From Paraspadella gotoi (taxonomy: Eukaryota > Animalia > Chaetognatha), in NCBI GenBank assembly GCA_051294375.1, contig CM119264.1:15835473-15899472 (forward strand): 64,000 nucleotides of DNA, in the 5' to 3' direction. The first letter of the stretch is position 1; every line of letters begins with the position of its first letter. Made by a program: the position numbers and the translations under genes. The notes under the pieces are model-generated. The model was given only the letters and a program-made list of their open reading frames with translations, ran no database searches and was not told where the DNA came from. Positions 2,593-59,175 of this stretch are shown here, in pieces.

Positions 2593-2847
2593 TGTGGCGG
2601 TATATTCACACCGCCTCAGGTCCACCATCGTTCAGCCAAATCCATTGGCTCAGAGGGGGAACACACCATCACAGGCGTAGTGTTCCATCCATAGTCCTTA
2701 CGACTTCCCTCTGCGTTGGCAAAGCGAGACCGTCCTAAGGTAACCGCGCCTGTGACTGGATGCGTCACTGAGGGTCGGAAGCCCCCAAAGCCAACAGTGA
2801 GATGCCCCATCCCAATGGGCATCAAAGGCAACCCGGCTGTTGCCATA
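2593..2847 (+). mobile_element. Family B solo-LTR-like element
   Basis: Termini TGTGGC...GCCATA with flanks CCTT/CCCT. A-box-like TGGCTCAGAGG, B-box-like TGTTCCATCC and many hairpins. A second copy lies at 27741-27993. Confidence 0.75.
2715..2795 (+). ncRNA. Twister-like ribozyme, P5 type (family B)
   Basis: P5 GTTGGC/GCCAAC, then GCGA-GA-CCG-TCCTAAGG-T^AA-CCGC-GCC. P3 GTGAC/GTCAC. P4 GGG/CCC with loop TCGG-AAGC. T1 CGG/CCG. Confidence 0.75.
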
Positions 2848-3221
2848 CCCTTCGTATTTATTTTCAAAATAAATTTCGTTGTTTGCAAAAAAAAACAAAA
2901 AAACAAAAAAACAAAAACCTTTAATTTGATTTTAAATTCTAAACGCAACTAAAAGATAAGTCTACTATATATATTAAAATATTAATAATTTAGGAAGCTT
3001 ATCCAGCCTGCTATTGACAATTCAGGAAAAAACTAAATAAACAATAAAACTCAATGAACTTCCCCCCTCCACCTTAAAAAACAAAAGGTTAGGTTTTTTT
3101 TCAAGCATGTCGATTGTCGAGCTAATTTGTACTTTATAGCCAATGATGTGGGGGAAAGTGGTGTTTAGGCAGCTTTGTGTATTCCCCCCCTTCACAGAAA
3201 TGCAGATCTAAAATTTGCGAC

Positions 3222-3538
3222 CTTTTCCATGACGATCAATGAGATGTCAGCAACAGACAAATGCGCTTTCTTGACTTCGTTTCCTTCCCAGACTCGGCAA
3301 GAAACCTTTCCGCCCCCAGCGACGGAGGCCCCGCCACCAGCGACCGGAGATGTCTTGATGTTCTGAGAGGACGACGCCGCAGCAGTGGAACTGTTCGTTT
3401 TAGTACCGCAAGCAGTTTCAAAGGCAGAGTCGTCGGCGCCGCCTAATACATCGGTGTCGTCCTGGAAGGCGGAAGAACCAACCATCGACAAAACACCCAA
3501 GGCGTGAGAAGTATCAGAATCGCCATCATCCGTTTCGC
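3222..3538 (-). CDS. PHTF: PHTF homologue, exon 5 (gene probably continues beyond the window start)
   Basis: TTTTCTAAG|GC acceptor. It encodes VSCRVWEGNEVKKAHLSVADISLIVMEK, resembling the PHTF motif VSAIIWEGNECKK.D.SVLEIS..I. The AAG|GTCGCA donor is tentative. Confidence 0.8.
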
Positions 3539-3604
3539 CTTAGAAAATTTTATTCTGTAAAAAACAAAAGCAACATTCTCCATGACAAATTCGTCTTACA
3601 CTAC

Positions 3605-3762
3605 CTTCCACTCCCACGTCTGAGTCCCAGGAAGTAGCACCGCCTGAGCGACGTTGCCCGCGCGCAGGCGATTTGCAAACCACAGCCTCATCGTCGGAGT
3701 CTTCGTCTGAGTTGTTCGACGAGAGCATAATGGCATCAAGAGCCACGCTTTTCTTCGAGTGT
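3605..3762 (-). CDS. PHTF: PHTF homologue, exon 4
   Basis: CTCTTTCAG|A acceptor, acidic/Ser-rich frame HSKKSVALDAIMLSSNNSDEDSDDE, and G|GTAGTG donor (phase 1). Confidence 0.7.
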
Positions 3763-3920
3763 CTGAAAGAGAAGCAACTTGATAGCGTTTTTTAGGATCA
3801 CAATGGCTTTTCAACGAAGAACAACAGTTATAATTCCACTACAGTAAATACGTAGGCAAGACTTCGTTTCCTTTAGCAATTAGACTAAATACGACACCAT
3901 CTATTGAATGAAAGTACTAC

Positions 3921-4072
3921 CTCTTTTGTGAATATCTCCTTGTAGGTGAGGCGCTTCGTCTGCGAGCGGGAGAGACGCTGTGATTGCGTTTTTCATTCGG
4001 CGGGTTCGTTGAAGACGCGAATGCAGAAGGAGAGAATTCTTCGTCCGTAAATGAAGCCGTTGAATCGCGATT
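3921..4072 (-). CDS. PHTF: PHTF homologue, exon 3
   Basis: TTTTTCAAG|AAT acceptor (phase 0) and AG|GTAGTA donor (phase 2). GC-rich open frame, phase-compatible with both neighbouring exons. Confidence 0.7.
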
Positions 4073-6158: not shown

Positions 6159-6197
6159 AATGAATTCAATAGACCAAAAAATTTTGAACATTAGTTT

Positions 6198-6228
<31 letters not shown>

Positions 6229-6320
6229 TTTCCAACAAAGAATTGAGCAAGGATAGTGGTCAGATGTGAGGACAGGTGAAAGTAGGGGAAGAGAGAGCAA
6301 ATGATTTTTGAAATTGGTGA

Positions 6321-6362
<42 letters not shown>

Positions 6363-6803
6363 CACAGGGATCAATACATTAGGCAATGTACAACAGTGAA
6401 AAATTTTAGAAAAAACTAAATATTAACAAAAGTAATAATAAATTAATTGTTAGCTGATGATTGTTGGTAAGAGAAAATGAAATAGAAGAATAAGTGATGA
6501 GGGATAGATAAGTTAAAGATAAGTGAAATAGTAAGGTAAGAAAAAAGCTCAAAAATGAGCTGACCCCCCCCCAGCCGGGCAAATGTGGGACGTTAACGAT
6601 GTAGTCGGGTCATTTTTGAGCTTTTTTCTTACCTTACTATTTCACTTATCTTTAACTTATCTATCCCTCATCACTTATTCTTCTATTTTCATTTTCTCTT
6701 ACCAACAATCATCAGCTAACAATTAATTTATTATTACTTTTGTTAATATTTAGTTTTTTCTAAAATTTTTCACTGTTGTACATTGCCTAATGTATTGATC
6801 CCT

Positions 6804-6853
<50 letters not shown>

Positions 6854-6947
6854 TCACCAATTTCAAAAAATCATTTTGCTCTCTCTTTCCCTACTTTCAC
6901 CTGTCCTCACATCTGACCACTATCCTTGCTCAATTCTTTGTTGGAAA

Positions 6948-6978
<31 letters not shown>

Positions 6979-7015
6979 AAACTAATGTTCAAAATTTTGG
7001 TCTATTGAATTCATT

Positions 7016-7860: not shown

Positions 7861-9169
7861 TAAGAAGACTCCTAAGAAAAGCCTATTTTGAAATTTTTCG
7901 ATTTTATAAGGATAGTACTATATATAAATATAGCCTACTGCAAAAATTAAAAAACATATAATTAATTTTTTTTACAAATTAATGTTCACTGATGGTATGT
8001 TGTTCATAATTGACTTTTAGAATTTTCGTATGTAACTTTCACTACGCCTTAATATTTACTAAGGCGGAACAAGGTAAAAACTAAGAGTTCTGTCATATAA
8101 ATAACGTTAAAGTATCTCTGTGGGATAACGAAATTTTAAAAAAAATAAAGATTTTATCTATAGTTAATAACATAGAAGCATTTAAAGTTTATCGTATTAC
8201 TATAAATCATGAAAATTTTATATTTCAAATTCAGAATTTTTAAAAACGGATTCGGGTAGAGCTTGAAAAAATAAATAAAAAATATAATTACAAGAATTCC
8301 GAATTTTTATGTTTTATTGGTTAAAATTATCAAAAAATATAAAAATTATGGTATGATGATGATGATGATTTTTAAGGGTTTTTCCCTTATTTGACCCACT
8401 TATCATCGAAATATTGAAAAACGCATTTTACTTTTTGTAGACAACTTTTTATGGGCTATCTGAATCCGTTCTTCAAAAATAAAATTTTTACAAAAAATTT
8501 TTTTCATTGCCTATGCATTTATAAATATTTAAATACTTTAATGTCATACTGTGCTTCACTAGTTATAAATGTGATAGTAAATATTGATTAAGTATATGAT
8601 GGACAAATGAATTTTATATGACAGAACTTCTAATGAAAAAATCATAATAAGATCATAATAAATATATTATATCAGTTTAATACATATTGATGATTCATAG
8701 GCCTTAATATACAATAGGAAAGATGATATAAAATGACTTTCGCCAGAACTGCTGCTGGCGCATTTTTGAGCATCATTTTTGGGAATCAAGAATGATCAAT
8801 TTGTTGAGAGAAAATACATTTGCATCTCCTGTAACCAGAGGTTTTGCGAGGAAAGCCTAGTTTTTGCGCAACAATAAAAATAAATATTGCTTTCTGTACT
8901 ATTCCAATATTTTTCTTATTTGAAAGATTCCTTTTCCGTTTTTAGTTAGACTTACCCTTACAGTACCTAGATTTAAAAACTAAATTTTTTCTTTTTCGTA
9001 TTTTCCATACAGTAAATATTTCAAAAAGCCTTGTTTTTTGGAATCAAATTCCCTATTTTTTTTCGGCCGATAGAAAAATAAAAATTTCGTCGAATACTGC
9101 TAATCCCTATTAAAGGAATTTTTTTCCTCTTCCGGACTCTTGGACTTTCACTAAGTCTACTATTCTTAC

Positions 9170-10182
9170 CTCGCAACTTACCCCATGCACCTTGCAATGC
9201 TTGAATCTTCTCGGCCCGAAGTCGCTAGAAGCCGAGGAATCCATGTTCATTGAATGATACTCGGCGCCTAACCTCGTGGGTGGATGCCGCGTACGTTCAT
9301 GGCTACAGTATTCACTCATTGGCGACGAGAAAGGCGTCGATGGAAGGACATTCGGCGAAACTTGTGACGTATTTAAGCCTTCAACGACCGATCCGCCCGA
9401 TCGGTTCTCTATCTGGTTCACAGCCTCTCCACTCCAGAAGCACCATCCCGAATCGTGACTACAGGAGCGAAGACAGCCGACTCTAGTGACACCAGAGTCT
9501 TCCACGCCAGAATCCTCGGGCATTGGGCGACGATGACGAAGACCCTCGCGCGCGGGATCGTCTATCGGGCGAGGGGCGTCCACCTGCCTGACCCTAATGT
9601 TGACTTCGTCGTCTCCATCCCGAAAATCGGAGCGAAGGTCCCTCCTGTCTCGTTCCATCTGCGAAAATGAGGCAGTGTCGCAGTGGCGCAACATAGAGGC
9701 GACGCCGTGCTCGTTGATGTCATCGAGAACGTCTCGCGACGAAGTGGGACGCAGATCGCGAACGGGAGTAGAGCGTGGCTGGCTAAGTCCCCGCATTACA
9801 CTGCGTCGACGATTTAGTTCCGAGTTTGTGGACGATGACGAGGGCGAATAATCGAGACGGAAGTCCGTCCCTTTAGATCCCGATACGATCTGAGTGTGAA
9901 TGAAGGCCAGGGAAAATGCCAGTGCTAAGGGAGTCAGGATCTCCGTCATAGTAAAGGCGTCCGGTTCAGCATCAACCCTCTCGTCCAAGGCAGTGAGGCC
10001 TAAAACGACTACGAATAGACAATAAAGGAAGAGGAAAAAGGCCCAAACGGCGACGGAGAAGTGTTGTCGCCACCAACGAAAATAGAGTGGAAAGAGGAGG
10101 AAGCGGAGCATTGACTTCTTGGTTAAAGCACCCCAACAAAATTGGGACTTTTGCTTCGGAAAGGGGCTGCCGCGAACCAAGT
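9170..10182 (-). CDS. PHTF: PHTF homologue, exon 2
   Basis: Acceptor TTCTTCAG|AC, then DLVRGSPFPKQK...LLFPLYFRWW and IHTQIVS (conserved PHTF block with hydrophobic segments) and a Ser-rich region. There are two in-frame donors, ending the exon at 9182 or 9170. Confidence 0.9.
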
Positions 10183-11462
10183 CTGAAGAAGAAAAAGCAA
10201 AAGTAGTATTCAAATCCTTATCGTTCGTAACCATTCATACCGTCGCGGTCGGAATAGGTTTCTTTGCAAAATAAGAATTAAAATTACATATCGATTGATA
10301 CGATGACGATTAATTGATGAAACGATCATGTCGCTTTATTGTTGAATTTAAGGGTTGAACTTAGGCAAAGATATTTTCTTAAGGTCCGGGATCACTCAAT
10401 TCAAATTATAATAGCTAAAACCGAGCTCGGATTTCGAAAGGAGAGCTCCTGACGATTCCGAAAATGTATTCACTTTACTATTTTTTCAAAGGCGTTATCG
10501 CTTTTTCGATTTTTTTGGTACTATATAAAATAAAGAAACCTATTTGAAGAGTTGCAGCCCAAACGGTAAGGCGGTTTCTCTGAAATTTGGCATGGATTAC
10601 TTTTAGGTCACAAACTCCAATTCTATGAAAAGATACTTTCAAAATTTGCCTTCCTTCATAGAAAATTTGATTATTTTAGTCAATTTTTGGATAAATTCCT
10701 TGATATCTTTGAAACGAAAAACATTTTTCCAAAAACGCGCTCATAGAATCTCCCCCACCTTTCCTTTCTTGCCCAATATATTTTTTTCTTCAAGAAGAGT
10801 CCTGTGGTTTGAGCTGCAACTCTTCGTTTTTAACTTCACTTCGTCAAGAAAGTTAAATTCTGTACTCATTACTTTTGCAAGATTCACCACAACATACACA
10901 AGCACGGGATGTGATGATGGAGTTTGTTCAACGCCGATGTCTTAAAAAAATGGCTTACTGTTTTTAATTTTTTTAAATTCAGATTTGATTTTTTCTTCAG
11001 AGATTTCCTAGAAATAGGGCAACTATTTTATGATATAACATTTATATAAAGTAAAAAGTCAAATTGAAATAAATTCGATAAGTTTTTTAACTCATAAAAC
11101 TCATAAAAGCATAAAAACCCATATGAAAAATGTGTAGAGTAGTTTGTTTTAGACTTATTAGTGATACAACTCCAAGTATGGACTTGTACCAAAGGAAGAA
11201 TTAAATATAAGAAGTAGAAATTGAGCTTACTGTAAAGAATCAGTTTTAAGTTAAAAATTTGGTTGTAGAAATTTAGCTTACATTTAAAAAAATATTTTTC
11301 TCTTGAAAATCTAGTTTTACGAAGAAAAAAAATTGTTAAAATTTTTATGAACATTTTAGGTAGATTTTTAAAAGTTTTCGATTATTTTTAATAGAAAACC
11401 TCTTACAAGATGTGAGAAAATGATTAAGATACAGTAAATTAAGATTTCTACAATATTAGATT

Positions 11463-19222: not shown

Positions 19223-21367
19223 AAAACATTTTATCAAGCTACTTCATAAATTTTGTCTTTTTTTACTTTAAATAAAAAATACAAGCAAATTTATAGAGTA
19301 GAGCAAATTTAATGGTAATCAAAATGTAATTTAGTCTTTCCTTTTTCAAATTACGAAAGAAGAAAAAAAATTTCACATGCCTTCATTGAAATTTTTAATG
19401 CAAAAAACTGTTATACTTTAACTCCGATTTAAATAAAAGCTGTGTAAAGATTTTATGAATAAAATTTAATAAAACTATTTCAGAGAGGTGTCCATGATTA
19501 GGGCTTTAATTTAATACCTCACCCACTTTCCTACCTCTTTTTTTTCCAAAGTTATTTAAGAAAATAACTTTTTTTACCGTGAGAGAACTAAGGATTTGAA
19601 CTACGCAGTACAAATCTTTGTTAAATAAAAATTTCAGCAAAGCGGGAGTATCTCAATTTATCCTATTGGTACAATACCTAATTTTAAAATAAAACTTAAA
19701 GAAAAATTTTCCGTCCTCTAGAGACATATCACTTTCAGGTTTACCCATCGTCTTACACATTTATGGATTATGCTGGAAGAAATCAGCAAAACGTTTTCTC
19801 TTTTTTTTAAATAGTTTGTACTAGGCGTCAGAAATCTAAGAAGAAACTCGAAAATTTTATTCTGACAAATTTTGCCTTTCAAGGCTGACGTTTATACTAT
19901 ATCTCGAAACCATTTGTGAATTTAAAAAACGGTTTTTGCAAGTGAATATTGATATCATCCTCCAGGGACCGGCCTATAAAATATATTAAAAAAATAACTA
20001 AATTGGCTCTCGAGTGAGGTATCTACTTTATATTATCTTTAAATATCTCTTTTCAAAATGTTAATTTTGGTAAATTTTTTCTAGCAGCGGATTTAAAATT
20101 TTTACGTGGTATACATGTACAGAGTGTCTCAAGCGTACCGTCACTTTACAAAAGAACGCTGTGTCAAATTGGTAGGGTAAATCATCAATTTGATAGAACT
20201 ACCGGAAAGATAAGTGCGTACAGTTTTTTTTGGTATCTATAATATCATGTTTATGGAGAATTGCAAGATTATTTGTTTTACTGTACTAGTCTTTAAAATT
20301 TTATATTTTATATTTAGAGAGAAAAGAATTTCTTTGTGCAACAACGACTTATTGTTAGTATACAAAAAACCCACTAAAAAGTGGGTTTTTTTAAAAATTA
20401 CTTAATTTTTTTAATATGAAACATTAAATTGTTGAAGCAAAAATTTAAATCATATAATATCTATCATTTTTACAAAGCTTAATATATAATTTAAAGATAA
20501 AAAATAACCCTAAACCTATGTTTTACATGTTTACTATCAGTATCACTTTCATTCCTGGCTTCTGTACCATTTTCCTTATATTAAATAATTTTAATCGTGA
20601 ATCGCAAATTATGTTAAGACCGACACAAAAATGATTGCTATTCTTTTGTTATTATTTAACACAAGGTCAGGGTTCTTTTAAAGCTATTTATCAGAAAAAA
20701 TTAAACTTCAATATAATTATATATTTGAATATTTGTCACACGTTAAAGAATTCGCTGAAAAGGTATCCTAACCAGGAGTAAAGTAACGAGATTAACGAAA
20801 ATGCAGGAAAATAATATATTGAGGTCAGGAAAAAATCTTAGCTTAATGAAACACCTTAATATTTTATTAACTCAAATATTGTATCCGAACATCAAAATTT
20901 ATTTTTAGCCCAAAAGACAAGTTAGTTCGTCAAAAACATGTACTAAAAATGTACTTCAAGTTTTAATGTATTAGTAATTTATATAAATGTTTATGATGCA
21001 TATTTATATCAAATTATTTTGAGTATTTAATTAATATTTTCTAATAAGATTAAGTTTATACACTTTTTTCATCACAGGTTTTATTCAGAAAATATAATAT
21101 TTATATTTATTACATTTCTGTTTACCATAAAAAATATTAATTAATTAATACTATTATTAAATATTTTCAGTATATTTTTATCAGTAATCACTTATATATA
21201 TATTTTATATTGGTTGTACCAATTTCATTAAAAAGTATAAATATTTTAAATTTGTATATTAAAAAGTATTAATATGACAGTCTGCTATCTATAATTTAAA
21301 AAACCCAAAAAACGCAATAAAACCCAAAAAAAACCAAAAAAACCCAGGTTTTTGCCAACCCAGCATA

Positions 21368-22032: not shown

Positions 22033-22311
22033 TTCTTCAGTGCTTATTAAATAATTTAATGAATTTCACTATAATATCTATATATTAGATTTAATTTATA
22101 TAAATCTTTATATAAGTATATTCTTTTATAATGTATTGGGGAGAGGGATGTTAGTGTTGTCTTCTGGAAATTGAGGGAGCATCTATACAACACAAGGTTA
22201 AAAATTACTTACTGCCCTAGATTGAAAATTCAAAATATTGAAAAGATAAAAAAAAACTTTTTTTTTATTATTATTTTATTATTCTCTATATTTCTCTCTC
22301 AATCAACTCTG

Positions 22312-26078: not shown

Positions 26079-27740
26079 CTACAAGAATAATCAACATTAA
26101 GACACAGCTAAATTAACATATAATAAAACAAGTTTGAGCAAATCGGATCTGCCCACGATCATTAGCGGTACTTAATTAAACATTAATTGACAATAGTTTG
26201 GTCAACTGACATAATTTGGTCAACTGACATAATTTGGTCAACTGACATAATTTGGTCAACTGACATAATTTGGTCAACTGGCAGAATTTGGTAAATCAAT
26301 CAAAGAGATTGAGAGAGGGAAACTTTTAAAACTTCAAATAAATGTGTCTTTTGGTTTTCTAATTTAAATTACTTTCCTACCCACACACAAAATTTCATTT
26401 CAATTTATCTATCCAATTTTAAATAAATATAATAATTATGAGTAAATATAAATAAAAATACTAAGTAAATATGACTTTTATTTTTTCCATTTAAACTCAT
26501 TTCCACTCGCACGATTCCATCAAAACTTTATATCCATTTCAATCACACACTTTCCTACCCACACACAAAATTTCATTCCAATCCATACATCCAATCACGA
26601 GTAATTGGAGTTTAATGCTAAGGGGGGATGGACGGATGGACGGATATCATTTTTTTTGCATAATTTATTATAATTTGGTTCTGATATGATAATAATGATT
26701 TCGCGACAATATTTTGGGGTGGGAACGACAAAGTAAATTATAGAATCGGAATCTGCTGATAAGCAGGATCCAAACTAAAAAAATGTCCCCGTCGGTTAGT
26801 CCGTCTTTCCGTCCCCCCTTAGCATTAAATCCAATTACTTCAAGTAATATGACTTTTGTTTTTTCCATTTAAACTTCCACTCGCACGATTCCATCAAAAC
26901 TTTATATCCAGCTCTATTACACACTTTCACAAAATTTCATTCCAATCCATCCATCCAATCACGATTAATTGAAGTTTAATGAAAAGGTGGGACAAACCTT
27001 CAGACAGACGGACATTGTTTTTTTTTGCTTAATTTCTCATAATTTGATGTTCTGACATGATTTAAGTGACTGCCCGACAACCTTTTAGGGTGGGACCGAC
27101 GGACCAACAAGGTGAATTATAGAGTCGGAATCTGCGATAAGCAGATCTGAATAAAAATTAATTTATTTGATTCGAAATGTTTGTTTTTGGGTCTGACCAA
27201 GATAAAAGCATCGACGATGATGGCGACGATGAAAATAATGCCGATAAAGATTGATTTGATTAATAGACTTTTTTTCCGCAACAAATGGTGATAGAAACTT
27301 CGGAAAACCACCATTCGATTCGAAATAAAATCCTCTTTCGAATGATGTGCTATATGATTAACTTATTTACAAATTTCCAAGTTCTACGTGCGTCAGATTT
27401 ATTATGGATTTAATTGAATGTAAAACTCCGATGTAGGTGTAATTTATTACAAATTAATAAAAAACTTGTTAATAGTATAAAACAAAATATTTTTAAACTG
27501 AAGAGACATTAATGATTGTTGTATGTTTGTTAGAAATGATTTTAAATCAAACAAATTCTTTTCGTGAATATCTGAATCACGTCAATTGGTATTAGTCTCA
27601 ACTTTAATGATTTTATATTATCTTGACTCTCATTGGTCGAATTCTACCAATAGTAGTTAATGATTGAATTCTCAATAATTTTAAAGAAGATCTCTCTTCT
27701 CATTGGTCCATTAAATTTAGTTTTTGTATAAAAGAAAGGG

Positions 27741-27993
27741 TATGGCAACAGCCGGGTTGCCTGTGATGGCCATTGGGATGGGGCATCTCTCACTGTGGGC
27801 TTGGGGCCTTCCGACCCTCAGTGACGCTTCCAGTCACTGGCGCGGTTACCCTAGGACGGTCTCGCTTTGCCAACGCAGAGGAAGTCGTTAGGACTGTGGA
27901 TGGAACACTACGCCTGGGATGGTGTGTTCCCCTCTGAGCCAATGGTTTTGGCTGACGGATGGTGGACGTGAGCGGTGTGAATATACCGCCACA
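27741..27993 (-). mobile_element. Family B solo-LTR-like element (twister 27795-27874) in myosin light chain intron 2
   Basis: Reverse-complement copy of 2593-2847 with an exact 4-bp TSD (AGGG at 27737-27740 and 27994-27997). Confidence 0.78.
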
Positions 27994-29471
27994 AGGGCAA
28001 ACTTTTATTTTTTGAGAGAATTGCCCTGGGACCATAAGGTAATTGATTGATTTACTGAAATTATTAAATAGTGGAATTAGTATTAATAAATGGTTATTTT
28101 TGTAGCTTTTGAGCTTCCACAGCTCTTCCACAGCGCTTCCAATGGCTCTACTGATTGCTATTCGATTGTCCTTATAAACTGTCAACTGAATTACAACTAA
28201 CTTCAATTAATACTACTAATCGCTTACGGTTATTGATGAGTCAACAATAAGAGAAATTAATATGAAGGATGCTCAATCGTGTTCCCAAGTCCGTAAGGAA
28301 ATGTGCAATCTCTAACAATGTTAGCAGATAGAGGGATGAGTATATTTCACTGGATTCCCCCATTTCTCTTCCCATTCTCGCTCGAGACACCATTTCTTCT
28401 CCTCTTCCCGCCTCTTTTTCCTCCCTTTCCCTTCCTCCTCATCGAGCGACGACAGAAGAGCAAAGAGAGAGATTTCGTTCTGTCTTGGGTTCTACTTCAG
28501 CTCGCGAGCTCCCTCTCAGAGAATATATTTTTTTTGCCTATTTTTTGGACTTTTCCTTTGACTTTACTCAGAGAGATAGAGATAAAAATGCGTGTATGAT
28601 TGAGAGAAAGAGAAAAAAAAATCTTAAAAGCATAAGGATCGTCGCAATCGCATACGAAAAATCTGGATTGACAACAAATTTTGATACTAAAAAAAAATAA
28701 AATTTGAGAAAAGAAAATTAATTTATAAACAAAAAGAAAAAATTTATTTTGCGATTGTCAATTAAAAAAAATAATAAAGTACCGAGGAAAATTAAAGTTA
28801 CAGTTTCTGTAAAAAAAAATTATTATCAAAAAATAAACTGATCAGCAGACGCAGCCCCTGAGAAAAAAAAAAGAGAGAGAGAGAAAGAAGCCAAATCGTT
28901 TTCGGACGAATCAGCAACGGCAGCAGCAGAGGCACCCAGAAAAAGAGAAAAAAATCAAAAGGCAGCAGAGCCAGCTGCAGACGACGCCACTTATGAGCAA
29001 AAGCGTTACAATATCATCGCAAACGCTAAGCGATTGTGACGATAAATAAAGAGAAGCTGGACAGCCGCTGCAGACCGAACTCGTTTTCAGACGAATCAGA
29101 AGAAACTGCGACGAAAAATAGAAAGAGCGACATATAATTAAAAGAGAGAGAAATAGAGAAAAACTGGACAGCCGCTGCAGAGCTGAACTCGTTTATATAT
29201 ATAAAAATTTTGTAAATAAAACAAACAAATGAGTGTAGGAATAAGAAACATAACAATTTAAAAGACCTCAATGATGAGAAGCCATATATATTATATATAT
29301 ATTATATAAATTTTCAGCTTCCTTTGGTACTCGAGCTATTTTTAATGTTAAAACAACGTGACAACGACGACTACGGTCAAAAGAAGCAGAAAAAAATTAA
29401 CATCTCGCCCAAGTCTGGCATTCGCCCGTCTGGCAAGATGAAAATAGGTAAACATTATTAATTGGCAAGAC

Positions 29472-36708: not shown

Positions 36709-37177
36709 AGTAGCGGTAGTATTTCATACCCCGCTACTCGTCCGAGAATCAGCAGCACCTATGGCGCCGGAGGAGCACGAGCTCCTCCCAACCCAAAGGA
36801 GTTGGGTTCGCGCCCTACTGATTCACCTAAGTAAAAGCGGGACGGGGCGTCGAACCCACCTGTAGTGACGGACTACAGCCCGATCCGACGTTCGGGACCT
36901 TGGGTGCAACGGACGGTGAACTGCTCGCGGCATCGTCTTCCACATTGGTGAGCCCACACTAACACGCTGGTACGTTAATACACCTCTGCCTGGGCATGTT
37001 AACCCACCTCTGCCCTCGACCATTGCGTGTGAAGACGGGAGCAGGAATAGGAAGGTCCTCCTAGAGTGCTCGGGCACAACGCGTGCATCATTGCCATCAC
37101 ACTTGCGCGGATGTGGGATGCCTTGGGGGGATGTGTAGTATTTCATACCCCGCTACTCGTCCGAGAATCCGCAACAC
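36709..37177 (+). mobile_element. Miniature non-coding LTR element (TRIM/LTR-retrozyme-like), family D
   Basis: 5' LTR about 36709-36944 ending CCACA, PBS TGGTGAGCCC at 36946-36955, internal region of about 189 bp, PPT GGGGGGA at 37125-37131, then TGTAGT... The segment 37135-37169 repeats 36716-36750 exactly (truncated 3' LTR). Confidence 0.8.
36824..36906 (+). ncRNA. Twister-like ribozyme, P5-type permutation (family D LTR)
   Basis: P5 CACCTAAG/CTTGGGTG, then GCGG-GA-CGG, GGCGTC and G^AA-CCC-ACC. P3 TGTAGT/ACTACA. P4 CCCGA/TCGGG closes loop TCCG-ACGT. T1 CCG/CGG and T2 AC/GT. Confidence 0.75.
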
Positions 37178-39595: not shown

Positions 39596-39827
39596 TGAAG
39601 AGACAGTAATTATTGATAAGTGTTAATGACAGAACCGTTCAATATAAGCAGTCCCGAGCTTCGGATCAGGCTGTAACACCATAGTTACAGGCGGGTTAAG
39701 CCACCCCGTCCCTCTTAACTGCCAGACGACCACCGGGCTAGAACCCGGACCTTTTGGGTTGGAGGCGAATGACTTCCTCCGGCACCAATGGCGCGGATGA
39801 ACGGTTGGTGGATTTTAGGCCACCATA
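39596..39827 (-). mobile_element. Family A solo-LTR-like element (twister at 39647-39722)
   Basis: Reverse-complement copy of 58944-59175 with 5-bp TSD ACAAT. P3, P4, P5 and T1 are intact. Confidence 0.8.
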
Positions 39828-44692: not shown

Positions 44693-44731
44693 GGACATGT
44701 TTCGACTCTGTGGTTTAGAGTCTTCATCAGC
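44693..44731 (-). ncRNA. Minimal type I hammerhead ribozyme
   Basis: CTGATGA-A-GACTCT(loop)AGAGTC-GAAACATGTC^. Stem I is weak. Confidence 0.8.
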
Positions 44732-45357: not shown

Positions 45358-45392
<35 letters not shown>

Positions 45393-45433
45393 AAAAACTA
45401 ACATTAAAGAGAAAATTGTTGATTGAATCAAAT

Positions 45434-45472
45434 GCTGATGAAGACTCTCAACCACAGAGTCGAAACATATCC
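45434..45472 (+). ncRNA. Hammerhead motif, probably decayed
   Basis: Same core, but ACATAT replaces ACATGT and breaks stem III. Confidence 0.65.
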
Positions 45473-46262
45473 CTATGAAATAAAAATTCGTTGTTACACA
45501 TTACAAATATGTTATTCCTTGAAAAAAGATTTAAAATTTTAAATAATTTACTTTTGACACTCTTAATTGAACCAAGGCTGGGCAGCTTACTTTTTATGTT
45601 AGTGCTTTCGTAAGTATATCATTCTCTTCATTTTTTTAAGGGCTTTCTGAAGATATTAATATTGTTAATATTTTAATAAATACTTTGTTTAAAAAAAAAT
45701 AAAAGTTCAAAAAAAAAAAGAATTTAAAAACAGTGAGTTGGAAAATGAAACCCGATTTGACAAGCCAACTTTCTCCACTCATTGTTAATATTAATATTAC
45801 TTTTTATGTTAGTGCTTTTGTAATTATATCAATCTCTTCATATTTTTAAGGCTTTCTGAAGATATTAATATTGTTAATATTTTAATAAATACTTTGTTTT
45901 AAAAAAATGCTAAAAGTTCCAAAAAAAAACATTTAAAAACAGTGAGTTTGAAAATGAAAGCCGATTTTACAAGCCAACTTTCTCCACTCATTGTCAAGGC
46001 ATATCTTAACTGATCAATATAAAATTTTAACACATAAATAGTTTGTATTTTCTACTCAACTATTTTTTAAAATCAATGAAATAACCACTGGTTTGCATAT
46101 TTCTACCGGCGCTTGTAAAATTGTCACCATGTACAAATTAATAATACATTTGAATTCAACAAAAATATTCAGAAATCGAAGATCAAAAATACTTAAAGCA
46201 GATCTATGTAAACAGATGTAAGTAAAATGGGATAACAAATGAAATGACTTCCTGTATTATAG

Positions 46263-46900: not shown

Positions 46901-49900
46901 ACAAACTTGCTCGATTGTCGTGATGATTGGTTGGCCCTGGATTGAGCTCTACACCGGTAATTATAAGTAATAATTTTTGACGCGGCGATATTTTTGCAGA
47001 GGATGATGTACCAAACGAAATGTAGAATGTGGAAAATATATAATATATGATTTACAACTTTAAGCTTTATTATTGATTTTTAATAATTATGAGGTAAAAT
47101 ATATTTCTGTTAATTGTTTTCTTAACTTACTTAAGCAATCTCCATGCTTTACGATCTGCAATGCAAGGAATACCCATAATAAAAAATGCATTCTTTAAAT
47201 AACATAAATAAATATCTAACATATGAAAACAGAATATTCAAAGAAAGCAGAAAGCACTTTTAATGGTAAATCATTAATGATTAATCATTAATCAAGTTTA
47301 AGAGAATGAGTGGAGGGTGTAAGAATTAATACCTCTTCGTGTTTTAGCTTCCTTTTCATACATCTTTCAATTATTTTATTATCTCTTGTACCTCTTGTCG
47401 GTTTATTCCTTTCCCTTCAATTTTAATTTATGGTTTAATAAATAATTTTTAAATTCATAAATATTAGAATTAATATAAGATTTTATTCCATAGGAAACAA
47501 AAATAATATTTTAATATATATTACTAAAAAATATTAACTTATTAGCAGAATAAAAGACATTAAAAAGTATACCATGGGTAAGCCCAATAACAGTACTATC
47601 TGAATAATAACAAACTTGAATAAAATACTTTATAATTAAACTTGTTTAACAAATTAAATTTTTCCAAAAAAAAATTTTTTTTGGCTACCCTTATATAATG
47701 TTAACATTTTAAAATGGTTTTTTTAAAAATTCTGATAACAGATTCAGATTCCTCGTTAAAAGTTGATAGAATATAATATATAAATCTTTTTCAAAAATTA
47801 TGTTATTAAATAGGTTAAAATCATAAAAAAACTATATTTAAGATATCGATTTTTAATTTTTTAGTTTTTGATATATTTGACCAACTTAATGAAATAATTT
47901 TTCAAAAATAATTTTTATATCAACTTTTTGTAAGGAACCCAAATCCGATCTTAAAATTAAAAAAATTGCATTTTGAAATTTTAGCCTATTTTATACTTAA
48001 ATTACTTATTATTAGCAAAGGGATTTGTTTTTGGGCAAACAACGATTTTATTTAATATGTTTTATATTAAATAAAATCGTTGTTTGCCCAACAACAAATC
48101 TCTTTGCTAATCAAAAACACTAATGTATGAAATTAAAAAATAAATTTACCAAAATATTTTTATTAGTTTTTATTTTCATGTTTTATATGCTAAATCTTAA
48201 TTTTATAAAATTTTATTATTTTCTTATCACTCTAGTGGTTAGGTCTAGGGGAGGTTAGGATTAGGGGTCGTTTGGGGTTGTGAACGTTAAGAGTAGTTAA
48301 GGGAGGTTAGGGTTTGAATTCGTAAGGGGTAAAGGAGATTTTTGAAAAAGTTTATGTATTCTTACCACTTACTAGTGTTCCTTTTTTTTTGTGCGTAATG
48401 ATATTTCTGATATTGTTGCTCGTAAGAAGCGAAAAAAACAAGTTTGAGCAAACAATGTCGGATCTGCCCACGATCATTAGCGGTAATTAATTAATTAATA
48501 CAAATTATATAAACTAAAAAATAATTTAATTAATAAATTAATTAATTTGATCCGAAATGTTTGTTTTTAGGTCTTTTCGTCACTGATCTCGACGAAAGCA
48601 AAGACGACGATGATGGCGATGACGACAATAATGCAGATAAAGATTGACTTGATTGATTGATTAATTGATTAAATAATTTATTTATAAATAGTTTGATTGA
48701 ATAATTGATTAATAGATAACTAAATAAATTGATTGATTGAATAATTAATTGATTATTTGACCAATTAATTATTTATTAATGAATTGATTAATTGAATAAT
48801 TAACTGATTAATTATTTGATTAATTAATACATCTTGCATTTAATATAAAAAGAAAAAGAAGCATAATCAATTAGTTTTTTGTTTTTTCGATTTAAACTCA
48901 TTTCCACTCAGACGATTCCATCGAAACTTGATTTCCAGCCCCGTCCACTTATGAGTAATTGCCGTTCAAATAGTGAAAGTTTTTTTTATCGAGCCTTGAC
49001 CGGCGAAGCCGGGTCAGAGCTCTATAATGTTTTAGGGTTGCTTCTTTGTGACGTAGTCGTCGCGTCGTCGTCGGTCCGTCACGCTGTTTTCATATATAAA
49101 AACTACTACGCTTTATATAGGTTTGGCTGTGATCTACCGTTTTTTTTAAAATAAAAATTATTATGAATTATGATAAAGTTTTACAAAAGTGTGCGATCAT
49201 AGTAATTTAAAATTTAGATATGGCTTTTCATCTTGAAATAGCTGTGATATTTTCATATTACATTTGGATTTAAGTATTTTTTGTTTGAATTTCCACTTCA
49301 TTATGATTTACTGCAATATGCAAATGAGATTAAAGTACTCATTATAATATCCAAATTAGTATATAAAAATGCTTTAATCTAATTTACATATTGCAGTATA
49401 TAATATTGAAGATGAAATTCAAAAAATTGTGTATAAATTTTTAATAAAAATGGGACTCAAAGGATTTTTTTAATGAGAAGCTATATCTTAATTTTAATAC
49501 AAATATAAATATCTTTTACAAGCTGCGATTGGAAAAATTGGAAAAATTTCCAATTGTAAACATTGTAACATTTTTTGCCTTTCTTTTTATTTCTTTAAAT
49601 TACTATATATATATTTGTCTCTCTTCTATATGTTGTTTTTATATGTTGTTTTTTTATTAGCGTCTTTTTTCTGTTTATGTGGTAGCGTCTGTATATGAAA
49701 TTGGTACAACCAATATAAATATTTTATATGTTTTTTATTAGCGTCTTTTTTTGTGTTTATGTGGTAGCGTTTTCAGTAGGATGATGTAGGAATTATTTTT
49801 ACTTAAAAAACAACAAAAAAAAAACAAAAAACAAAAAAACCAGACTGTCCTTTTGTGTATTGTTAGCGTCTCATTCGTTTTTAGCGTCTCTTTGTTTTTT

Positions 49901-51211: not shown

Positions 51212-52283
51212 AGCTTCTTTCTCTCTCTCTTCTCTCTCTTTCTCTCTTTCTGACTCTCTCTCTCTGTACGATCTCTTGCGTGATCGTTCGTTTTTTTGAA
51301 AAATTCTGGTTATTTTTTTCCTTTTTAAAACTTTTGTTTTTATTTATTACTGTAACTTTGGACCGGTCGGCCCACTTTTAGCAAATTATATCAAAAATAG
51401 GAGTCGAGAAGAGAGATATAGACAAATTAAACATTACTTTTTTGTTATTCTGATAATTTGTACTATTATTAAATGTATAAATATTTTTAGTGTATATATT
51501 AAATCATTTTTATCTTTTTTTAAACTAATAATTATTTTAGTTTTGTTAACTATTTATAAATTAATTAAATATGCAAATATAAAATTGACCTCGGTCTGGT
51601 TTCTTCCTAAAAAAAGAACAATCAAAATTTTTATTCAAGATTAAAATTTATTAAAAATGAAAAATAAAATTTTTTTTGATAAGTAAAAAAAATATTTGGA
51701 ATCAAAAAAATCATAGTCGTTAACTGAGTATTGTCAACTATATATTTTGTTAATAGGCGATTCTAATTTTATTTCTATCACGTTCAAATATTTGTTTGTG
51801 GTCTCTCTCTGTCTCTCTCTCTCTCTGTCTCTCTGTGTGTGTCTCTCTCTTATTCTCTCTCGGTCTCTCTCTGTGTGTTCTGTCTCTCTCTGTATGATCT
51901 TTTGTGTGATCGTTCGTTTTTTGAAAAATTCTGATTATTTTTTTCCTTCTAAAAACTTTTATATCGCCATTTATTATTTTATCTCAATACAAAATCCCAA
52001 AATACAATAACTTACTTAACCTAGATTTCGTGGTCGTTGCGGGGCAACAAGTAAACAAATGTCGAGGAACATGACCTAATAATGCGTTACGTGTAAAAAA
52101 AAAAATAACATGACCCAATTTCACGACGGATAACCGATATAAACGAGAGTGACCTAATAATGCGTCTCTGTTGGTGGGAAAATTCTCTCTCTCTCTCTCT
52201 TTCTCACTCTCTCCCTCTTTCTCTCTCTCTCTCTCTTCTATTTCCTTTTTTTTTACCAAAAAATTGTTATTCAGTTTTTTTTT

Positions 52284-52355
52284 GCATCAGCAGGGCGCGA
52301 ACCCGAGTCCTTTGATTGGAGGTGCTCGCGCTACCTCCGAGGCTCCCGGACGAGT
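52284..52355 (-). repeat. Fragment of family D tRNA-like head
   Basis: Reverse complement CTCGTCCG...CGGAGGTAGCGCGAGCACCTCCAATCAAAGGACTCGGGTTCGCGCCCTGCTGAT matches 36737-36822. Confidence 0.65.
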
Positions 52356-52485: not shown

Positions 52486-53148
52486 CAACTTGCATACTTT
52501 TTAAACTTGCATAATTTTTCAACTTGCATAATTTTATTCATAATTTTTCAACTTGCATAATTTTTAACTGCATAATTTTAACTTGCATAATTTTTCAACT
52601 TGCATAATTTTTAACTTACTTGCATAATTTTTTAACTTGCATAATTTTTTAAACTTGCAAATTTTTTAACTTGCATAATTTTTAACTTGCATAATTTTTA
52701 ACTCATAATTTTTTCAACTTGCTTAATTTTTTCAACTTGCTAATTTTTCAACTTGCTTAATTTTTTCAACTTGCTTAATTTTTTCAACTTGCTTAATTTT
52801 TTTAACTCGCATAATTTTTTGCAACTTGCATTATTTTTTAACTTGCATAATTTTTTCAAAAACTTGTATACTTTTTTCAATTTGCATAATTTTTTTCACT
52901 TGAAAAAAATATGCTAGTTGAAAAAATTATGCAAGTTAAAAAAATTATGCAAGTTAAGAAAATTATGCAAGTTAAAAAAATTATGCTAGTTGAAAAAATT
53001 ATGCAAGTTAAGAAAATTATGCAAGTTAAAAAAATTATGCTAGTTGAAAAAAATATGCTAGTTGAAAAAATTATGCAACTAGCATAATTTTTTTAACTTG
53101 CATAATTTTCTTAACTTGCATAATTTTTTCAACTTGCATAATTTTTTT
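52486..53148. repeat. 17-18-bp minisatellite (AACTTGCATAATTTTTT)n with an internal inversion
   Basis: Tandem array whose orientation flips at about 52900 and back at about 53077. Confidence 0.9.
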
Positions 53149-53887
53149 ATGAAATTGGTACAACCAATATAAAAATTATCCATTCATTTAATAAATAAGC
53201 TATCTTGCCCCTGACTTTGGACAGGCTTTGGTGGTTTAAAGCCTCCATCACTCTTACAAGATAATGACATAGCAGGTCCATGCAAGCTTTCAATCAAGAC
53301 TCTCTCACAATCTCGTTTATTCACTCCCAGAGTACCTGGCTTTTTTATCAATGAAGTGGAAAATATTTCAAAGAATGTTTCAATTGTATGAAAAGACCAC
53401 TCCCTTAAGTATTAGTAATTTTTTATACTTGCATAATTTTTTTAACTTACATAATTTTTTTAACTTGCAGCATTTTTTCGACTTTTAACTATCTAGTTAT
53501 CGAGTTTCATTAGTGAGGCAGTGAGGAAGTTGAAATGTGTGTCCATTTTCTTTGTTTCATATCGATTAAAATATTTTTTGTTTGAATTTCCATTTAATTA
53601 TGATTTACTGCAATATGCAAATTAGATTATGGTAATTTTCTTTGATAGTAAAAAAAGGCGAGATCACTATACTTTTAAGATTTTTTTTTTTCTATTTAAA
53701 CTCATTTGCACTCGCACGATTCATCGAAACTTTATATCCAACTCGGTAACACACTTCCCTACCCACACACAAAATTTCATTCCAATCCATCCATCCAATC
53801 ACGAGTAATTGGAGTTTTTTGCTAAGGTGGGACGGACAGACAGACGGGCATAATTTATTTTTGCATAATTTATCATAATTCGACATT

Positions 53888-54194
53888 TGTGGATAAGGCG
53901 CTACGTGGGCTGAAAATGACTGTCCGTAACTTCTATAACCCCCTCTAGCAGCCATGGAAAGGGTCCCTGGGCTTGGAACCAGGCTTGAGGGTTTGCCATG
54001 CCCCCAAGGCGGCTTACAGCCGTCCTCACGGCGTGAGGCTCACGCTTCCCGCAGGGTAGGTACCGGGTTGGGATTGAACCCGGTACCCAGTGGTCATGAG
54101 CTGATGGCTTTACTCAATGAGCCACCGGGTCACAACTGAAAGTGTCATGCTTCTAGGCGAGGTGAACCTAGGCATTAGGCAATGCCCGACTACA
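53888..54194 (-). mobile_element. Family C solo LTR (tRNA-Met-like head + twister-like core at about 53960-54050)
   Basis: Minus strand runs TGTAG...CCACA with 4-bp TSD CATT. A-box-like TGGCTCATTGAG, loop CTCATGA, B box GGTTCAATCCC. Core GA-GGA-CGGCTG-T^AA-GCC-GCC, P3 TTGGGGG/CCCTCAA, P4 CCTGG/CCAGG, loop TTCC-AAGC. Confidence 0.78.
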
Positions 54195-56075: not shown

Positions 56076-56977
56076 TATGGTGAACTTAAATCCACCAACC
56101 GTTCATCAGCAGCCATTGATGCAGGCTCTGGTTAAAATTTGGCATATTGTGTGCCAGATTTGGCATAATTTCAGACCGTTTAGCCAGTAAAAAAATGTTC
56201 TGGCATATAGCATACAATCTGGCATATTCAAAATGTGAAAAAAATTTTAGGTTTTTCGATCTACAGCATTGGACAGAGTATGAAAAACACTTCCTTTGGC
56301 AATGTAAATCTGTATTAAATATGTTATTTGCTTATTTTATTATTTATTTCTTTGATAACAATAACAATAAAGCCAAAGTATTTGGTTAATACCGATTTTC
56401 CTCTGAGATGCTTGTGTAGTTCAGTAATACTAGTAATAGCATGTTAAAGCAACTTTCCAAGAGCAAAATACTATGACGTCGGTTGGTTGGTCTGTTTGAA
56501 AATTACTGCTGCAAAACACCTTTTACAGGACTTGACCGGTTATATGGCTCATCGCTTAAGCATTAAGAATTAATCAATTCACAAAAAATCTCATTTTTTT
56601 GGTCTTTTTGTTTTTATCTGTCTTAATAATTTTACATAGGCTCTAATAATAATCATTTTTCTGTACTCTTGTAATAGTTTTGCATTAAATTAGCTAAAAT
56701 ATAATTTGGCATAATATTTAGCATACTAAAAAAAAAACTAACCATTTTTAGCATAATTTAGGGCGCTATCTGGCACACGTTTTTTCTGCAGAGTTTTAAC
56801 CAGAGGATGCAGGAGGTAAGTCATTCGCCTCCAAAACCAAAGGTCCGGGGTTCTAGCCCGGTGGTCGCATAGCAGTTAAGAGGGACGGGGCTCTTAACCC
56901 GCCTGTAACACAGTGTTACAGCCTGATTCGAAGCTCGGTTCAGTCACTAACTCATAGCAATTATTACCGTCTCTTAA
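56076..56977 (+). mobile_element. Family A solo-LTR-like element interrupted by a MITE (twister core 56871-56938, P5 3' arm deleted)
   Basis: The head at 56076-56125 resumes at 56814. Flanked by TSD GTAC. Confidence 0.75.
56126..56805. mobile_element. 680-bp non-autonomous DNA transposon (MITE)
   Basis: 12-bp TIR CTCTGGTTAAAA/TTTTAACCAGAG and 8-bp TSD GATGCAGG (56118-56125, 56806-56813). Confidence 0.88.
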
Positions 56978-57304
56978 GTACCAAACGTTAAAATATTTTT
57001 GCGTCAATGAATTATGTCAAAATAAACCAGCCATTTGGATCACACTCAGTACGAAAAATAGTCTCAATAGTTACGATATAAAATGAAAATCAAAAATATT
57101 AAAAATTATAAATTGCGGAAATTAAGAATAGTTTAACTAATTAATAGGCTAAATCAATCAAAAGAAGATACTGATGATTTAGCCGTTGATCACAAAAAAT
57201 AAAATAAATTTAAGATGCGTATAAATATCAGCAACGACGAACAAAAACCAATAAAAAAAAGCAAAATCTCGTCCTCCTTCGAATGCAAAAAAGATTCTTT
57301 TCCT

Positions 57305-57882
57305 TCATCTCGGCGGTTTGGTCGTACCATCCCCTTCTCCAGACGTAAAATCTAGCTTTGGAACCACGGAAATCACAGAATTTTGATGATATTGTTGTTG
57401 TTCTTGATATTTTTGTAAATGGCGTTGGTGCTGCTCCTGCTGCTGCGAGGAAATCGATCCGTGATAATTAAAATGTGCTGAAGAGGAAACTGGATGAGGC
57501 TGGTTGTTCATGTAAGCGGGTATACTACCGATGTCGCCTTGTGATCCTGCGGAGGTTGACGAAGTAGTTGTCGTCGTCGTCGTCACTGTCGTCGTAGGAG
57601 TTAAGTGGGAACGATACGTTTGAGAGGGGGGTTGCCCGGGATGACTGTATCTGGAATCGATAATGTTCACCTCAAGACCATTTATGAGCCGGAGCGGTGG
57701 CACCATTGGCGAATGATGATATTGCAGATGAAGTTCGTGTTGTTGGTGCTGCTGGAGTTGGTGGGCCTTGTGTTGCTGGGTAATTCGTCGGCGAGTAAGC
57801 GGTTCATCGAGGTAAGAGGTCACAATGACAGGATGAGCCGGTTTACCCGTCATATTCGAAGGATTACCGCCTTGGCGCGTTT
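57305..57882 (-). CDS. Terminal exon (His/Gln/Thr-rich, low complexity) of the same coiled-coil gene
   Basis: TCTTCCAG|AA acceptor in phase 1 matches the GCAG|GTACC donor at 62129. The frame stays open to TGA at 57305. Confidence 0.7.
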
Positions 57883-58259
57883 CTGGAAGACAAATTACGT
57901 AATTAAAGATTATTTTATTAGGAAAATATAAGATATATAATAATGTCTTATTTTATTAATTACTAATATTTAAGATTATTGTATTTGTGATTACGACGAG
58001 TTGACTAAACATTAAATTATTAAAAAACATTAGTATGAAACGTGACAGACCCCAAAAAATAAATGTGGCGGAAATTTATTATCACAAAATAAAAGGGTAC
58101 AGAGAGACTTTTACAATGGTTGAGAGATCATGATAGAGTGAACAAGATCAGTTCATCCAATATGTTAAGCAGCAGTGACTTTATTTTCACGTGTATTTAT
58201 GACACGCACTGCATCAGAATTCCATCTTTTATTCTTTATAGTTTTATAATTTCCTGAAG

Positions 58260-58530
58260 GCGATGATAACCAAATATTGATGCGATGACATTCATTCATT
58301 GATGCGATGATAACCAAATATTGATGCGATGACATTCATTCATTGATGCGATGACATTCATTCATTGATGCGATGACATTCATTCATTGATGCGATGACA
58401 TTCATTCATTGATGCGATGACATTCATTCATTGCTGCAATGACATTCATTCATTGACGCGATGAAATTCATTCATTGACGCGATGACATTCATTCATTGA
58501 CGCGATGATAGTCATTCATTGACGCGATGA
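58260..58530. repeat. 19-20-bp minisatellite (GATGCGATGACATTCATTCATT-like); related arrays at 22350-22600 and 63438-63690
   Basis: Visible tandem units. Confidence 0.9.
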
Positions 58531-58943
58531 CAGTGTATGAGTGAGAGAGAAAAACCGAGAGAGAGAAAGAGAAAAAGAAAGAAAGAGAAAAAGAGAGAGA
58601 AAGAGAAAAAAAAAAGAAAGAGAAAAAGAAAAAGAAAGAAAAAGAAAGAAAAAAAAGAGAGAAAGAGAGAGAAAGAGAGAGAAAGATAGATACAAGCTGG
58701 ATAACCGCTGGAGAGCCGCTGCAGCTGTCCTCGTTTTTAGACGAATCAGAAGAGTCGGCGATGGAAAAAAAAGCGAGAGCGCGATACCCCGTGTCCGTTC
58801 GCGAGTGACACCAAAAAAATGCGTACCATTTCTCATTGGATAAATATTTTTTAAATTTTTTTTCCTCATTCTGGAGCAAAGTACTGGACGTTTATTATAT
58901 TTTAATTTAATAAGATGAAATTGATATTTACTCATGTAAAACT

Positions 58944-59175
58944 TATGGTGGACCAAAATCCACCAACCGTTCATTAGCGGCCATTGGTGCCGGAGGCAAG
59001 TCATTCGCCTCCCAACCCAAAGGTCCGGGGTTCTAGCCCGGTAGTCGCCTAGCAGTTAAAAGGGACGGGGCGCTTAACCCGCCTGTAACATGGTGTTACA
59101 GCCTGATCCGAAGCTCAGGGACTGCTTATATTGAACTGTTCTGTCATTAACACAATAATTATCACTGTCTCTTCA
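58944..59175 (+). mobile_element. Family A solo-LTR-like element (tRNA-Gly-like head + twister)
   Basis: Termini TATGG...CTTCA with 4-bp TSD AACT. tRNA-like segment 58977-59048 has acceptor GCGGCCA/TAGTCGC, A-box-like TGGTGCCGGAGG, loop CTCCCAA and B-box-like GGTTCTAGCCC. Confidence 0.8.
59051..59126 (+). ncRNA. Twister-like ribozyme, P5 type (family A)
   Basis: P5 AGCAGTT/GACTGCT, then GG-GA-CGG-GGCGCT-T^AA-CCC-GCC. P3 TGTAAC/GTTACA. P4 CCTGA/TCAGG with loop TCCG-AAGC. Predicted cut 59075/59076. Confidence 0.8.

Follow-up and report, generated by a model that had tools for sequence, protein, structure and literature searches.

The window, a stretch of 64,000 nucleotides (nt) of AT-rich, repeat-rich, animal-type DNA from Paraspadella gotoi (contig CM119264.1, positions 15,835,473 to 15,899,472), harbors eight folds of the type-P5 twister, a self-cleaving ribozyme, which fall into five families of short repeats designated A to E (Table 1). 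We are almost certain that the fold carried by these repeats is real. The first-pass annotation of this DNA had described four families, A to D, that share the strand order P5-P2'-GA-T1'-P1-N^AA-P2-RCC-P3-G-P4-L4-P4'-P5', and both this order and the sequences given for the pseudoknots T1 and T2 and for the stems P3 and P4 are present where it had placed them. Families A to D stand, but a fifth family, E (53202-53262, minus strand), had been overlooked, and A and D are kin. In E, T1 is CCA/UGG, T2 is AC/GU, and P3 is lacking. The folds are closed by P5 and contain P2, P4, and L4, for family C when the majority letters are used. The catalytic G of the GA step and the A following the cut site are retained in all eight copies, and both pseudoknots are fully Watson-Crick in six of them; A2 contains one wobble and T2 is damaged in B2.

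The descriptor used for detection comprises the elements GA, T1, N^AA, P2, T2, P4, and L4 and was composed after the sequences had already been seen. It matches six loci, namely A1, A3, B1, C, D, and E, with the G of the GA step at 59064+, 39710-, 2728+, 54027-, 36841+, and 53249-, respectively, as compared to a mean of 0.23 and a maximum of two loci in 100 local dinucleotide shuffles. Copies A2 (G of GA at 56884+) and B2 (27861-) miss the descriptor because of decay, in line with the earlier remark that individual copies are decayed. A fixed IUPAC pattern allowing up to three mismatches returned five of the known copies and no new one, with 0.01 matches expected. At the gathering score, Rfam yielded no match in the window (Twister-P5, RF02684, cut-off 37.6 bits). 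In E-value mode, E reached 25.2 bits on RF02684 as the best copy, followed by C with 16.8 bits, both below the cut-off; B1 scored 16.4 bits on twister-P1, and the D element was not matched even in this mode. Likewise, Rfam matched no hammerhead in the window, type I being the class that characterizes metazoan non-LTR (long terminal repeat) retrozymes, and scans of metagenomes with A/D-type and E-type patterns gave no match. A resemblance of the opposite strand of B to 5S rRNA was dropped because Rfam gave no backing.

The pairings covary between families, as had been claimed, and also between A and D, which are 71% identical over 118 nt (z = 7.7 for their heads) and differ in T2, two P3 pairs, and one P4 pair. 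B weakly resembles D (z = 4.4), and the upstream part of E is unrelated to the others. Since A and D are related, we count four lineages and not five independent ones. The P5 sequences differ but pair; the pairing in C, which had been considered unclear, is resolved by the majority base at position 53960 and by discounting an insertion at 54025-54038. As noted earlier, P2 is short. For A2, A3, D, E, and the C majority it is best interpreted as three base pairs with a single base bulging from P2', whereas B has four base pairs with a C-A mismatch; in A1, the G of the third pair is missing. A P2 of 3 nt is also common among the prokaryotic P5 twisters of the control set described below, and natural twisters tolerate P2 defects (PMC11662667).

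Contigs of public runs were compared with D (four runs: X1, X2, X3, and X6) and with C and E (two runs), and the majority data cover these three families. In X3, the summed contig depth, which does not equal copy number, is 181 in a repeat-free bin, approximately 2-3.6e5 for the D core, 0.8-1.7e6 for C, and 3.9-7.0e6 for E; C, D, and E are clearly abundant, high-copy dispersed repeats. None of the 11 majority differences listed inside the C, D, and E ribozymes (at least 11 in total) breaks a predicted pair. Seven restore a pair or a conserved base or remove a private insertion, two constitute a compensatory pair, and two are located in the P3 loop. In D, the majority provides the canonical U before the cut at 36852 (258,287 of 259,509 in X3), where the window copy has a G at position -1, the canonical L4 base at 36889, which is altered in the window copy, a Watson-Crick pair at 36828, and a double compensatory change in P5 at 36827 and 36903. 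In C, the majority base at 53960 lengthens P5 to 5 bp, and the 14 nt at 54025-54038 are private to the window copy. Selection on structure, for which the first-pass annotation had argued, is supported by these data, and RNAs of family-majority sequence are very probably able to cleave.

The P1 segment, extending from T1' to the cut, comprises only 6-8 nt and is fully self-complementary in five of the eight copies: GGCGCU (A1), UCCUAGGG (B2), CGGCUG (C), GGCGUC (D), and AGGCUU (E). Copies A2, A3, and B1 are each one lesion away from full self-complementarity, and the family majorities of C (position 54018) and E (53240) turn a wobble P1 into a perfect palindrome. A stable P1 hairpin, as expected for a twister, is absent from all families: none of the eight segments folds into a hairpin alone, and P1 can form 1-2 bp within one strand, as opposed to 6-8 bp between two strands, with predicted homoduplexes of -3.9 to -11.0 kcal/mol for the five self-complementary segments. 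The chance that all inner P1 pairs form in four lineages is 3e-5 to 2e-4, a slightly optimistic figure because the best B copy was used and one pair of the B 8-mer could form in a hairpin; for the central pair alone it is 4e-3 to 1.3e-2. These palindromes had escaped the first-pass annotation, which had likewise overlooked that the carriers, described below, are likely retroposons, some with tRNA-like heads.

The control set consists of 50 matches obtained from 48 loci of viruses and bacteria; 42 of these matches passed the P2 and T2 checks. None of these 42 prokaryotic or viral P5 twisters has a P1 of 8 nt or less; it ranges from 12 to 30 nt and mostly forms a long hairpin. In a scan for spacers of 6-8 nt, none of the 29 matches, which are mostly due to chance, was fully self-complementary. 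Two distinct viral-contig matches (L055/L077 and L060/L064/L076) have a partly palindromic P1 of 6-8 nt and pass loose P2/P4 checks, and they may be chance as well. A precedent for pairing between copies is offered by amphibian hammerheads, in which a single pair with a palindromic tetraloop makes for poor cleavage as monomers and efficient cleavage as dimers (PMC7229834; PMC6765202). For twisters, dimers are mentioned only as a crystal artefact in the available text of PMC5408937. We consider it probable that the palindrome is kept for pairing between copies; that the dimer is strictly obligate appears doubtful.

The carriers of the ribozymes are short (230-270 nt), non-coding, dispersed repeats that were likely retroposed. 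With a relaxed score, ARAGORN finds a tRNA-like cloverleaf in A1, A3, C, and D (0, 3, 5, and 5 of 200 shuffles, respectively), while at the standard threshold it reports no tRNA in the window. The tRNA labels given by ARAGORN differ among the heads. B contains A and B boxes only, the B box of D is loose, and E has neither boxes nor a tRNA-like head. The A, B, and D units lack a run of four T. In A and D, 33-36 nt of hairpin sequence separate the 5' end from the tRNA-like part, whereas a short interspersed nuclear element (SINE) would start at the tRNA part. At the 3' ends, neither poly-A nor a repeat tail is present. In A1, A3, B1, B2, and D, the cut site lies 130-154 nt from the 5' end and 86-112 nt from the 3' end. 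Direct repeats of at least 6 nt border all three A copies, with a chance of 2.8% each. The D core has sharply defined ends between unrelated flanks: in X3, loose ends occur at 36710 in 42 contigs and at 36944 in 41, and in X2 the corresponding numbers are 38 and 37. For E, 166 loose ends fall at 53152 in X3 and 25 in X6. The flanks of D, C, and E are AT-rich, and one E tail adjoins a (TA)n run. Two tail-only fragments of E suggest 5' truncation. Readings of the A-E carriers as LTR elements, Helitrons, or miniature inverted-repeat transposable elements (MITEs) were discarded, as neither TG..CA ends nor terminal inverted repeats are present.

The D copy in the window represents a long form, in which a 190-nt extension (about 5% of the core depth in X3) runs into a repeat of the element's own 5' end, resulting in a head-to-tail unit of approximately 425 nt. 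A non-autonomous Penelope-like element would be expected to form a partial tandem (pseudo-LTR) with a tail of 30-40 nt; the terminal repeat of long D measures 43 nt, and no comparable repeat was seen in the other families.

Table 1. Ribozymes, carrier elements, and related fragments in the window (cut sites are predicted)
Feature	Position	Strand	Details
B1 element	2588..2852	+	Hairpin at 5' end, A/B boxes, twister, pair of hairpins at 3' end; identity to B2 92% (267 columns); no ARAGORN cloverleaf
B1 twister	2715..2795	+	Cut 2741^2742; P1 2733-2740, an 8-nt palindrome with one mismatch
E 3' tail fragment	21203..21234	+	About 30 nt; adjoins (TA)n run; likely 5'-truncated copy
B2 element	27736..27998	-	Twister 27795-27874; cut 27848^27847; fully self-complementary 8-mer P1; T2 damaged
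D core unit	36710..36944	+	5' hairpin, tRNA-like head ~36746-36827, twister, 3' end; ARAGORN -ps80, 5/200 shuffles
D twister	36824..36906	+	Cut 36852^36853; P1 36846-36851, self-complementary
Long-D extension	36945..37177	+	Extension 36945-37134, then 43-nt repeat 37135-37177 = 36716-36758
A3 element	39597..39827	-	Twister 39647-39723; cut 39698^39697; one-base insertion in P1; 6-bp target duplication
Second E 3' tail fragment	49694..49723	-	
D head fragment	52283..52339	-	No ribozyme; 81% over 59 columns
E element	53152..53414	-	5' end uncertain; no tRNA-like head; deepest of C, D, and E
E twister	53202..53262	-	No P3; cut 53238^53237; 6-mer P1; RF02684 25.2 bits
C element	53911..54165	-	Approximate ends; tRNA-like head, A/B boxes
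C twister	53959..54052	-	Cut 54016^54015; private insertion 54025-54038
A2 element	56076..56975	+	Split by 680-nt insertion; decayed twister from 56871, cut 56895^56896; target duplication at element ends
A1 element	58944..59174	+	Hairpin at 5' end, then tRNA-like head (58977-59049), twister, and 3' tail; target duplication of 6 bp; ARAGORN -ps85, 0/200 shuffles
A1 twister	59051..59126	+	Cut 59075^59076; P1 59069-59074, fully self-complementary

The window contains several further repeats as well as exons. A2 is a full copy interrupted by the MITE-like insertion at 56126-56805 (680 nt), which has terminal inverted repeats and an 8-bp duplication. E is inserted in a tandem array of an 18-nt minisatellite; dispersed arrays of this minisatellite are located at 23432-23680, 52486-53149, and 61087-61816, and those of a 22-nt minisatellite at 22350-22598, 58276-58532, and 63439-63673. 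Approximately 550 nt upstream of D, at 35842-36157, a TTAGGG-rich tandem repeat of 132-134 nt is found. At 6178-6998, 21598-23243, and 44642-45523, there are long inverted repeats of the fold-back type, with 90-100% complementarity along 120-210 nt. Another dispersed repeat, which is abundant, includes a short microsatellite of tetranucleotide type, and resembles DINE/Helentron elements, occurs at 1697-2016, 23907-24226, 26394-26675, 30597-30885, 53627-53890, and 60144-60504. The GC-rich region around 11900-16500, with broken frames and a reverse-transcriptase-like motif and without a Pfam match, reads like an LTR-retrotransposon pol. On the minus strand, exons of a PHTF gene (PF12129) lie at 9113-10234 and 25064-25312, some 15 kb apart, and an EF-hand exon at 25898-26107.

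The short non-coding carriers raise the matter of a partner enzyme, and here Naiads, a group of Penelope-like elements, are of relevance. Ten Naiad consensus 3' ends from part of the supplement of PMC8557442, partly picked by motif matches, were read by eye. Five of them (Mgal, Bpla, Mphi, Scon, and Mmer) display a P5 twister in which P2 is 3 nt long and the P1 region contains two palindromes; three of these five have T2 AC/GU, a P4 of the form CCYG/CRGG, and a bulged P2' in common with D and E. Two of the ten carry hammerhead-core words, and three show no twister, one of which looks truncated. At this position, Naiads apparently rely on one or the other of the two ribozyme classes. For Naiads, PMC8557442 describes a (TA)n insertion bias, unclear duplications, and no canonical hammerheads; the words 'twister' and 'SINE' are absent from its main text. 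Moreover, a short (C/T)TTC motif terminates A, C, D, and E and by eye also occurs about 35-47 nt before three Naiad ends, a weak similarity. In a Penelope-like Poseidon element, copying begins internally, 85-92 nt behind the hammerhead cut, with uncut RNA as the main substrate (PMC11167929). On balance, a Naiad or other Penelope-like partner is slightly more likely than not.

Given the fold, the palindromes, the dispersal with fixed ends, the duplications of A, and the head-to-tail arrangement of long D, all of which are observed directly, the explanation we lean towards is that of five non-coding retroposed families, four of them with a tRNA-like or A/B-box head, that contain a type-P5 twister fold predicted to self-cleave, whose palindromic P1 would make a full helix only between two copies, and that are likely copied by a Naiad-type Penelope-like reverse transcriptase. 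In the proposed cycle, a minority of tandem master units would be transcribed, probably by RNA polymerase III (Pol III), which is suggested because A, B, and D are devoid of a run of four T. A lone ribozyme, with 1-2 bp in P1, would cut weakly, while two adjacent or concentrated copies could swap strands via the palindrome to form two cores that cut efficiently at N^AA, like the double hammerhead. Cutting by the dimer would free unit-length RNA, which might be circularized. From a fixed position located 86-112 nt behind the cut, the partner enzyme would then begin to copy, pass back over the ribozyme, which is uncut or re-joined, and over the head, and halt at the 5' hairpin. Such an internal start together with a stop at the 5' hairpin would account for dispersed copies of 230-270 nt with a central ribozyme. 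A tentative and, taken as a whole, rather unlikely elaboration regards the repeats as tRNA-headed SINEs that parasitize Penelope-like (Naiad) elements and not long interspersed nuclear elements (LINEs), with a palindrome-gated 'double twister' that fires only in tandem or concentrated transcripts.

A number of observations weigh against this explanation. With respect to the carriers, E lacks a tRNA head and contains T-runs, D occurs mostly as dispersed monomers in unrelated surroundings, and the junction at 37134 is represented by a single contig in X1 and another in X3, while X2 and X6 lack it. No tandem form of C or E was seen in the contigs of the two runs. Target duplications are not convincing at the ends of B1, B2, and long D, and the 6-bp duplications of A are clear, unlike what is reported for Naiads, namely a (TA)n bias and indistinct duplications. 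As to the partner, Pfam detected neither a reverse transcriptase nor a GIY-YIG domain in the 131 open reading frames of the window, where no partner is visible; five of the ten Naiad ends are without a twister; and the Naiad twisters contain two palindromes in a longer P1 region, whereas the window families have one. Cutting by a Penelope hammerhead is not required for in vitro insertion, as catalytic mutants still insert (PMC11167929). Finally, with regard to the ribozyme itself, family B carries a C-A pair beside the active site. The twister consensus includes P1 among the essential stems, yet the env22 twister retains near wild-type activity without it (PMC5408937), and natural twisters tolerate P1 defects (PMC11662667). 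Since P1 is dispensable elsewhere, monomers may cut well here and the dimer might be optional.

The last point leads to an alternative that we consider unlikely but take seriously: the ribozymes may be standard P5 twisters that have a minimal P1, are active as monomers, and cut tandem or read-through transcripts, as do the SINE-like hammerhead elements of Schistosoma, with the palindrome being incidental or a minor aid. Apart from the tolerance for P1 loss and P2 bulges (PMC5408937; PMC11662667), this is consistent with a single pair closing a 4-nt loop, which is possible in every copy that passes the descriptor. However, the central pairs, which are impossible within one strand, are Watson-Crick in all five families, in four different sequences and the B 8-mer, the palindrome becomes perfect with the majority letters of C and E, and by eye the Naiad twisters also show palindromes.

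Alternatively, the fold might have been acquired with a Naiad-like 3' tail and retained as the recognition structure of the partner enzyme, cutting being weak or irrelevant. The similar twisters at Naiad 3' ends, the dispersed copies that span the cut site, and the Poseidon data, with uncut RNA as the main substrate and insertion by catalytic mutants (PMC11167929), would be compatible with such a role. It is nonetheless distinctly unlikely, as all eight copies retain the catalytic G and the A that follows the cut, the D majority has U at -1, and A and D, after sharing a head, diverged with compensatory changes in T2, P3, and P4.

That the repeats are conventional SINEs moved by a LINE, of the RTE type or another, with a twister from elsewhere, would be in keeping with the tRNA-like heads, the A/B boxes, and the short target duplications, and RTE 5' ends are known to bear twisters (PMC8501958). 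We regard this as very unlikely: the cut of RTE twisters falls at the 5' end of the element rather than centrally, a ribozyme placed downstream of a SINE head should truncate the SINE (PMC5786205), the 5' ends lie 33-36 nt ahead of the tRNA-like part, and the 3' ends are without a poly-A or repeat tail. A chance resemblance in GC-rich repeats, which might be invoked since the Rfam gathering score is never reached and the descriptor was composed with the sequences at hand, is negligible in view of six loci versus 0.23 expected, majority letters that obey the fold, and the independent Naiad examples.

Should the proposed cycle with cleavage gated by the palindrome hold true, it would spare host pre-mRNAs containing many single intronic copies and free unit-length or circular RNA from master arrays. 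A second ribozyme class would then have arrived at the same solution as the double hammerhead, which would also provide a concentration-dependent self-cleaving part. Furthermore, it would help to explain RNA processing in Naiads, reported to be without canonical hammerheads, and point to SINE-like passengers of Penelope-like elements. Few jobs are known for natural twisters. As Rfam misses every copy in the window, which contains one per 8 kb, such ribozymes are probably under-counted. In the literature searched, which left out most subscription papers, we found no natural twister that is dimeric or has a palindromic P1, and none in a tRNA-headed repeat. Truncated twisters at RTE 5' ends are mentioned (PMC7761336), and no further twister permutations were found in PMC10085705.

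In comparison with known systems, the window families resemble the type-P5 twister (RF02684, clan CL00120; PMC5408937) in the P5-open strand order, the GA step, N^AA, two pseudoknots, P2, P4, L4, and an optional P3. They differ from it in that P1 is a palindrome of 6-8 nt instead of 12-30 nt, P2' is bulged, T1 varies with the family, and the Rfam score lies below the cut-off. Twisters are likewise found in an animal retroelement in the case of Perere-3 (RTE) of Schistosoma mansoni (PMC8501958); there, the cut sets the 5' end of the element and host DNA provides P1, whereas here the cut is central and the element non-coding. Naiads (Craig et al. 2021, PMC8557442) are autonomous elements of 3.4-4.4 kb with two P1 palindromes, in contrast to the non-coding units of 230-270 nt with one palindrome and tRNA-like heads. 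The SINE-like hammerhead elements of Schistosoma (PMC6765202) similarly consist of a Pol III-type head followed by a self-cleaving ribozyme, an arrangement for which propagation therefore needs tandem copies. The ribozyme class is different, and the window families add a 5' hairpin before the tRNA-like part as well as several diverged families in one genome. Metazoan non-LTR retrozymes are tandem units of 150-450 nt with abundant linear and circular monomer RNA; in the window, only long D (~425 nt, ~5% of depth) might be a counterpart of such tandem units. Lastly, the dimer-cleaving hammerheads of amphibian retrozymes (satellite or non-LTR) and of Penelope-like pseudo-LTRs (PMC7229834; PMC6765202) also reduce one helix to a single pair with a palindromic loop and reside in short non-coding repeats of a few hundred bases. 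They are hammerheads and not twisters, and the window copies are mostly dispersed monomers with tRNA-like heads, for which cleavage as a dimer is predicted.

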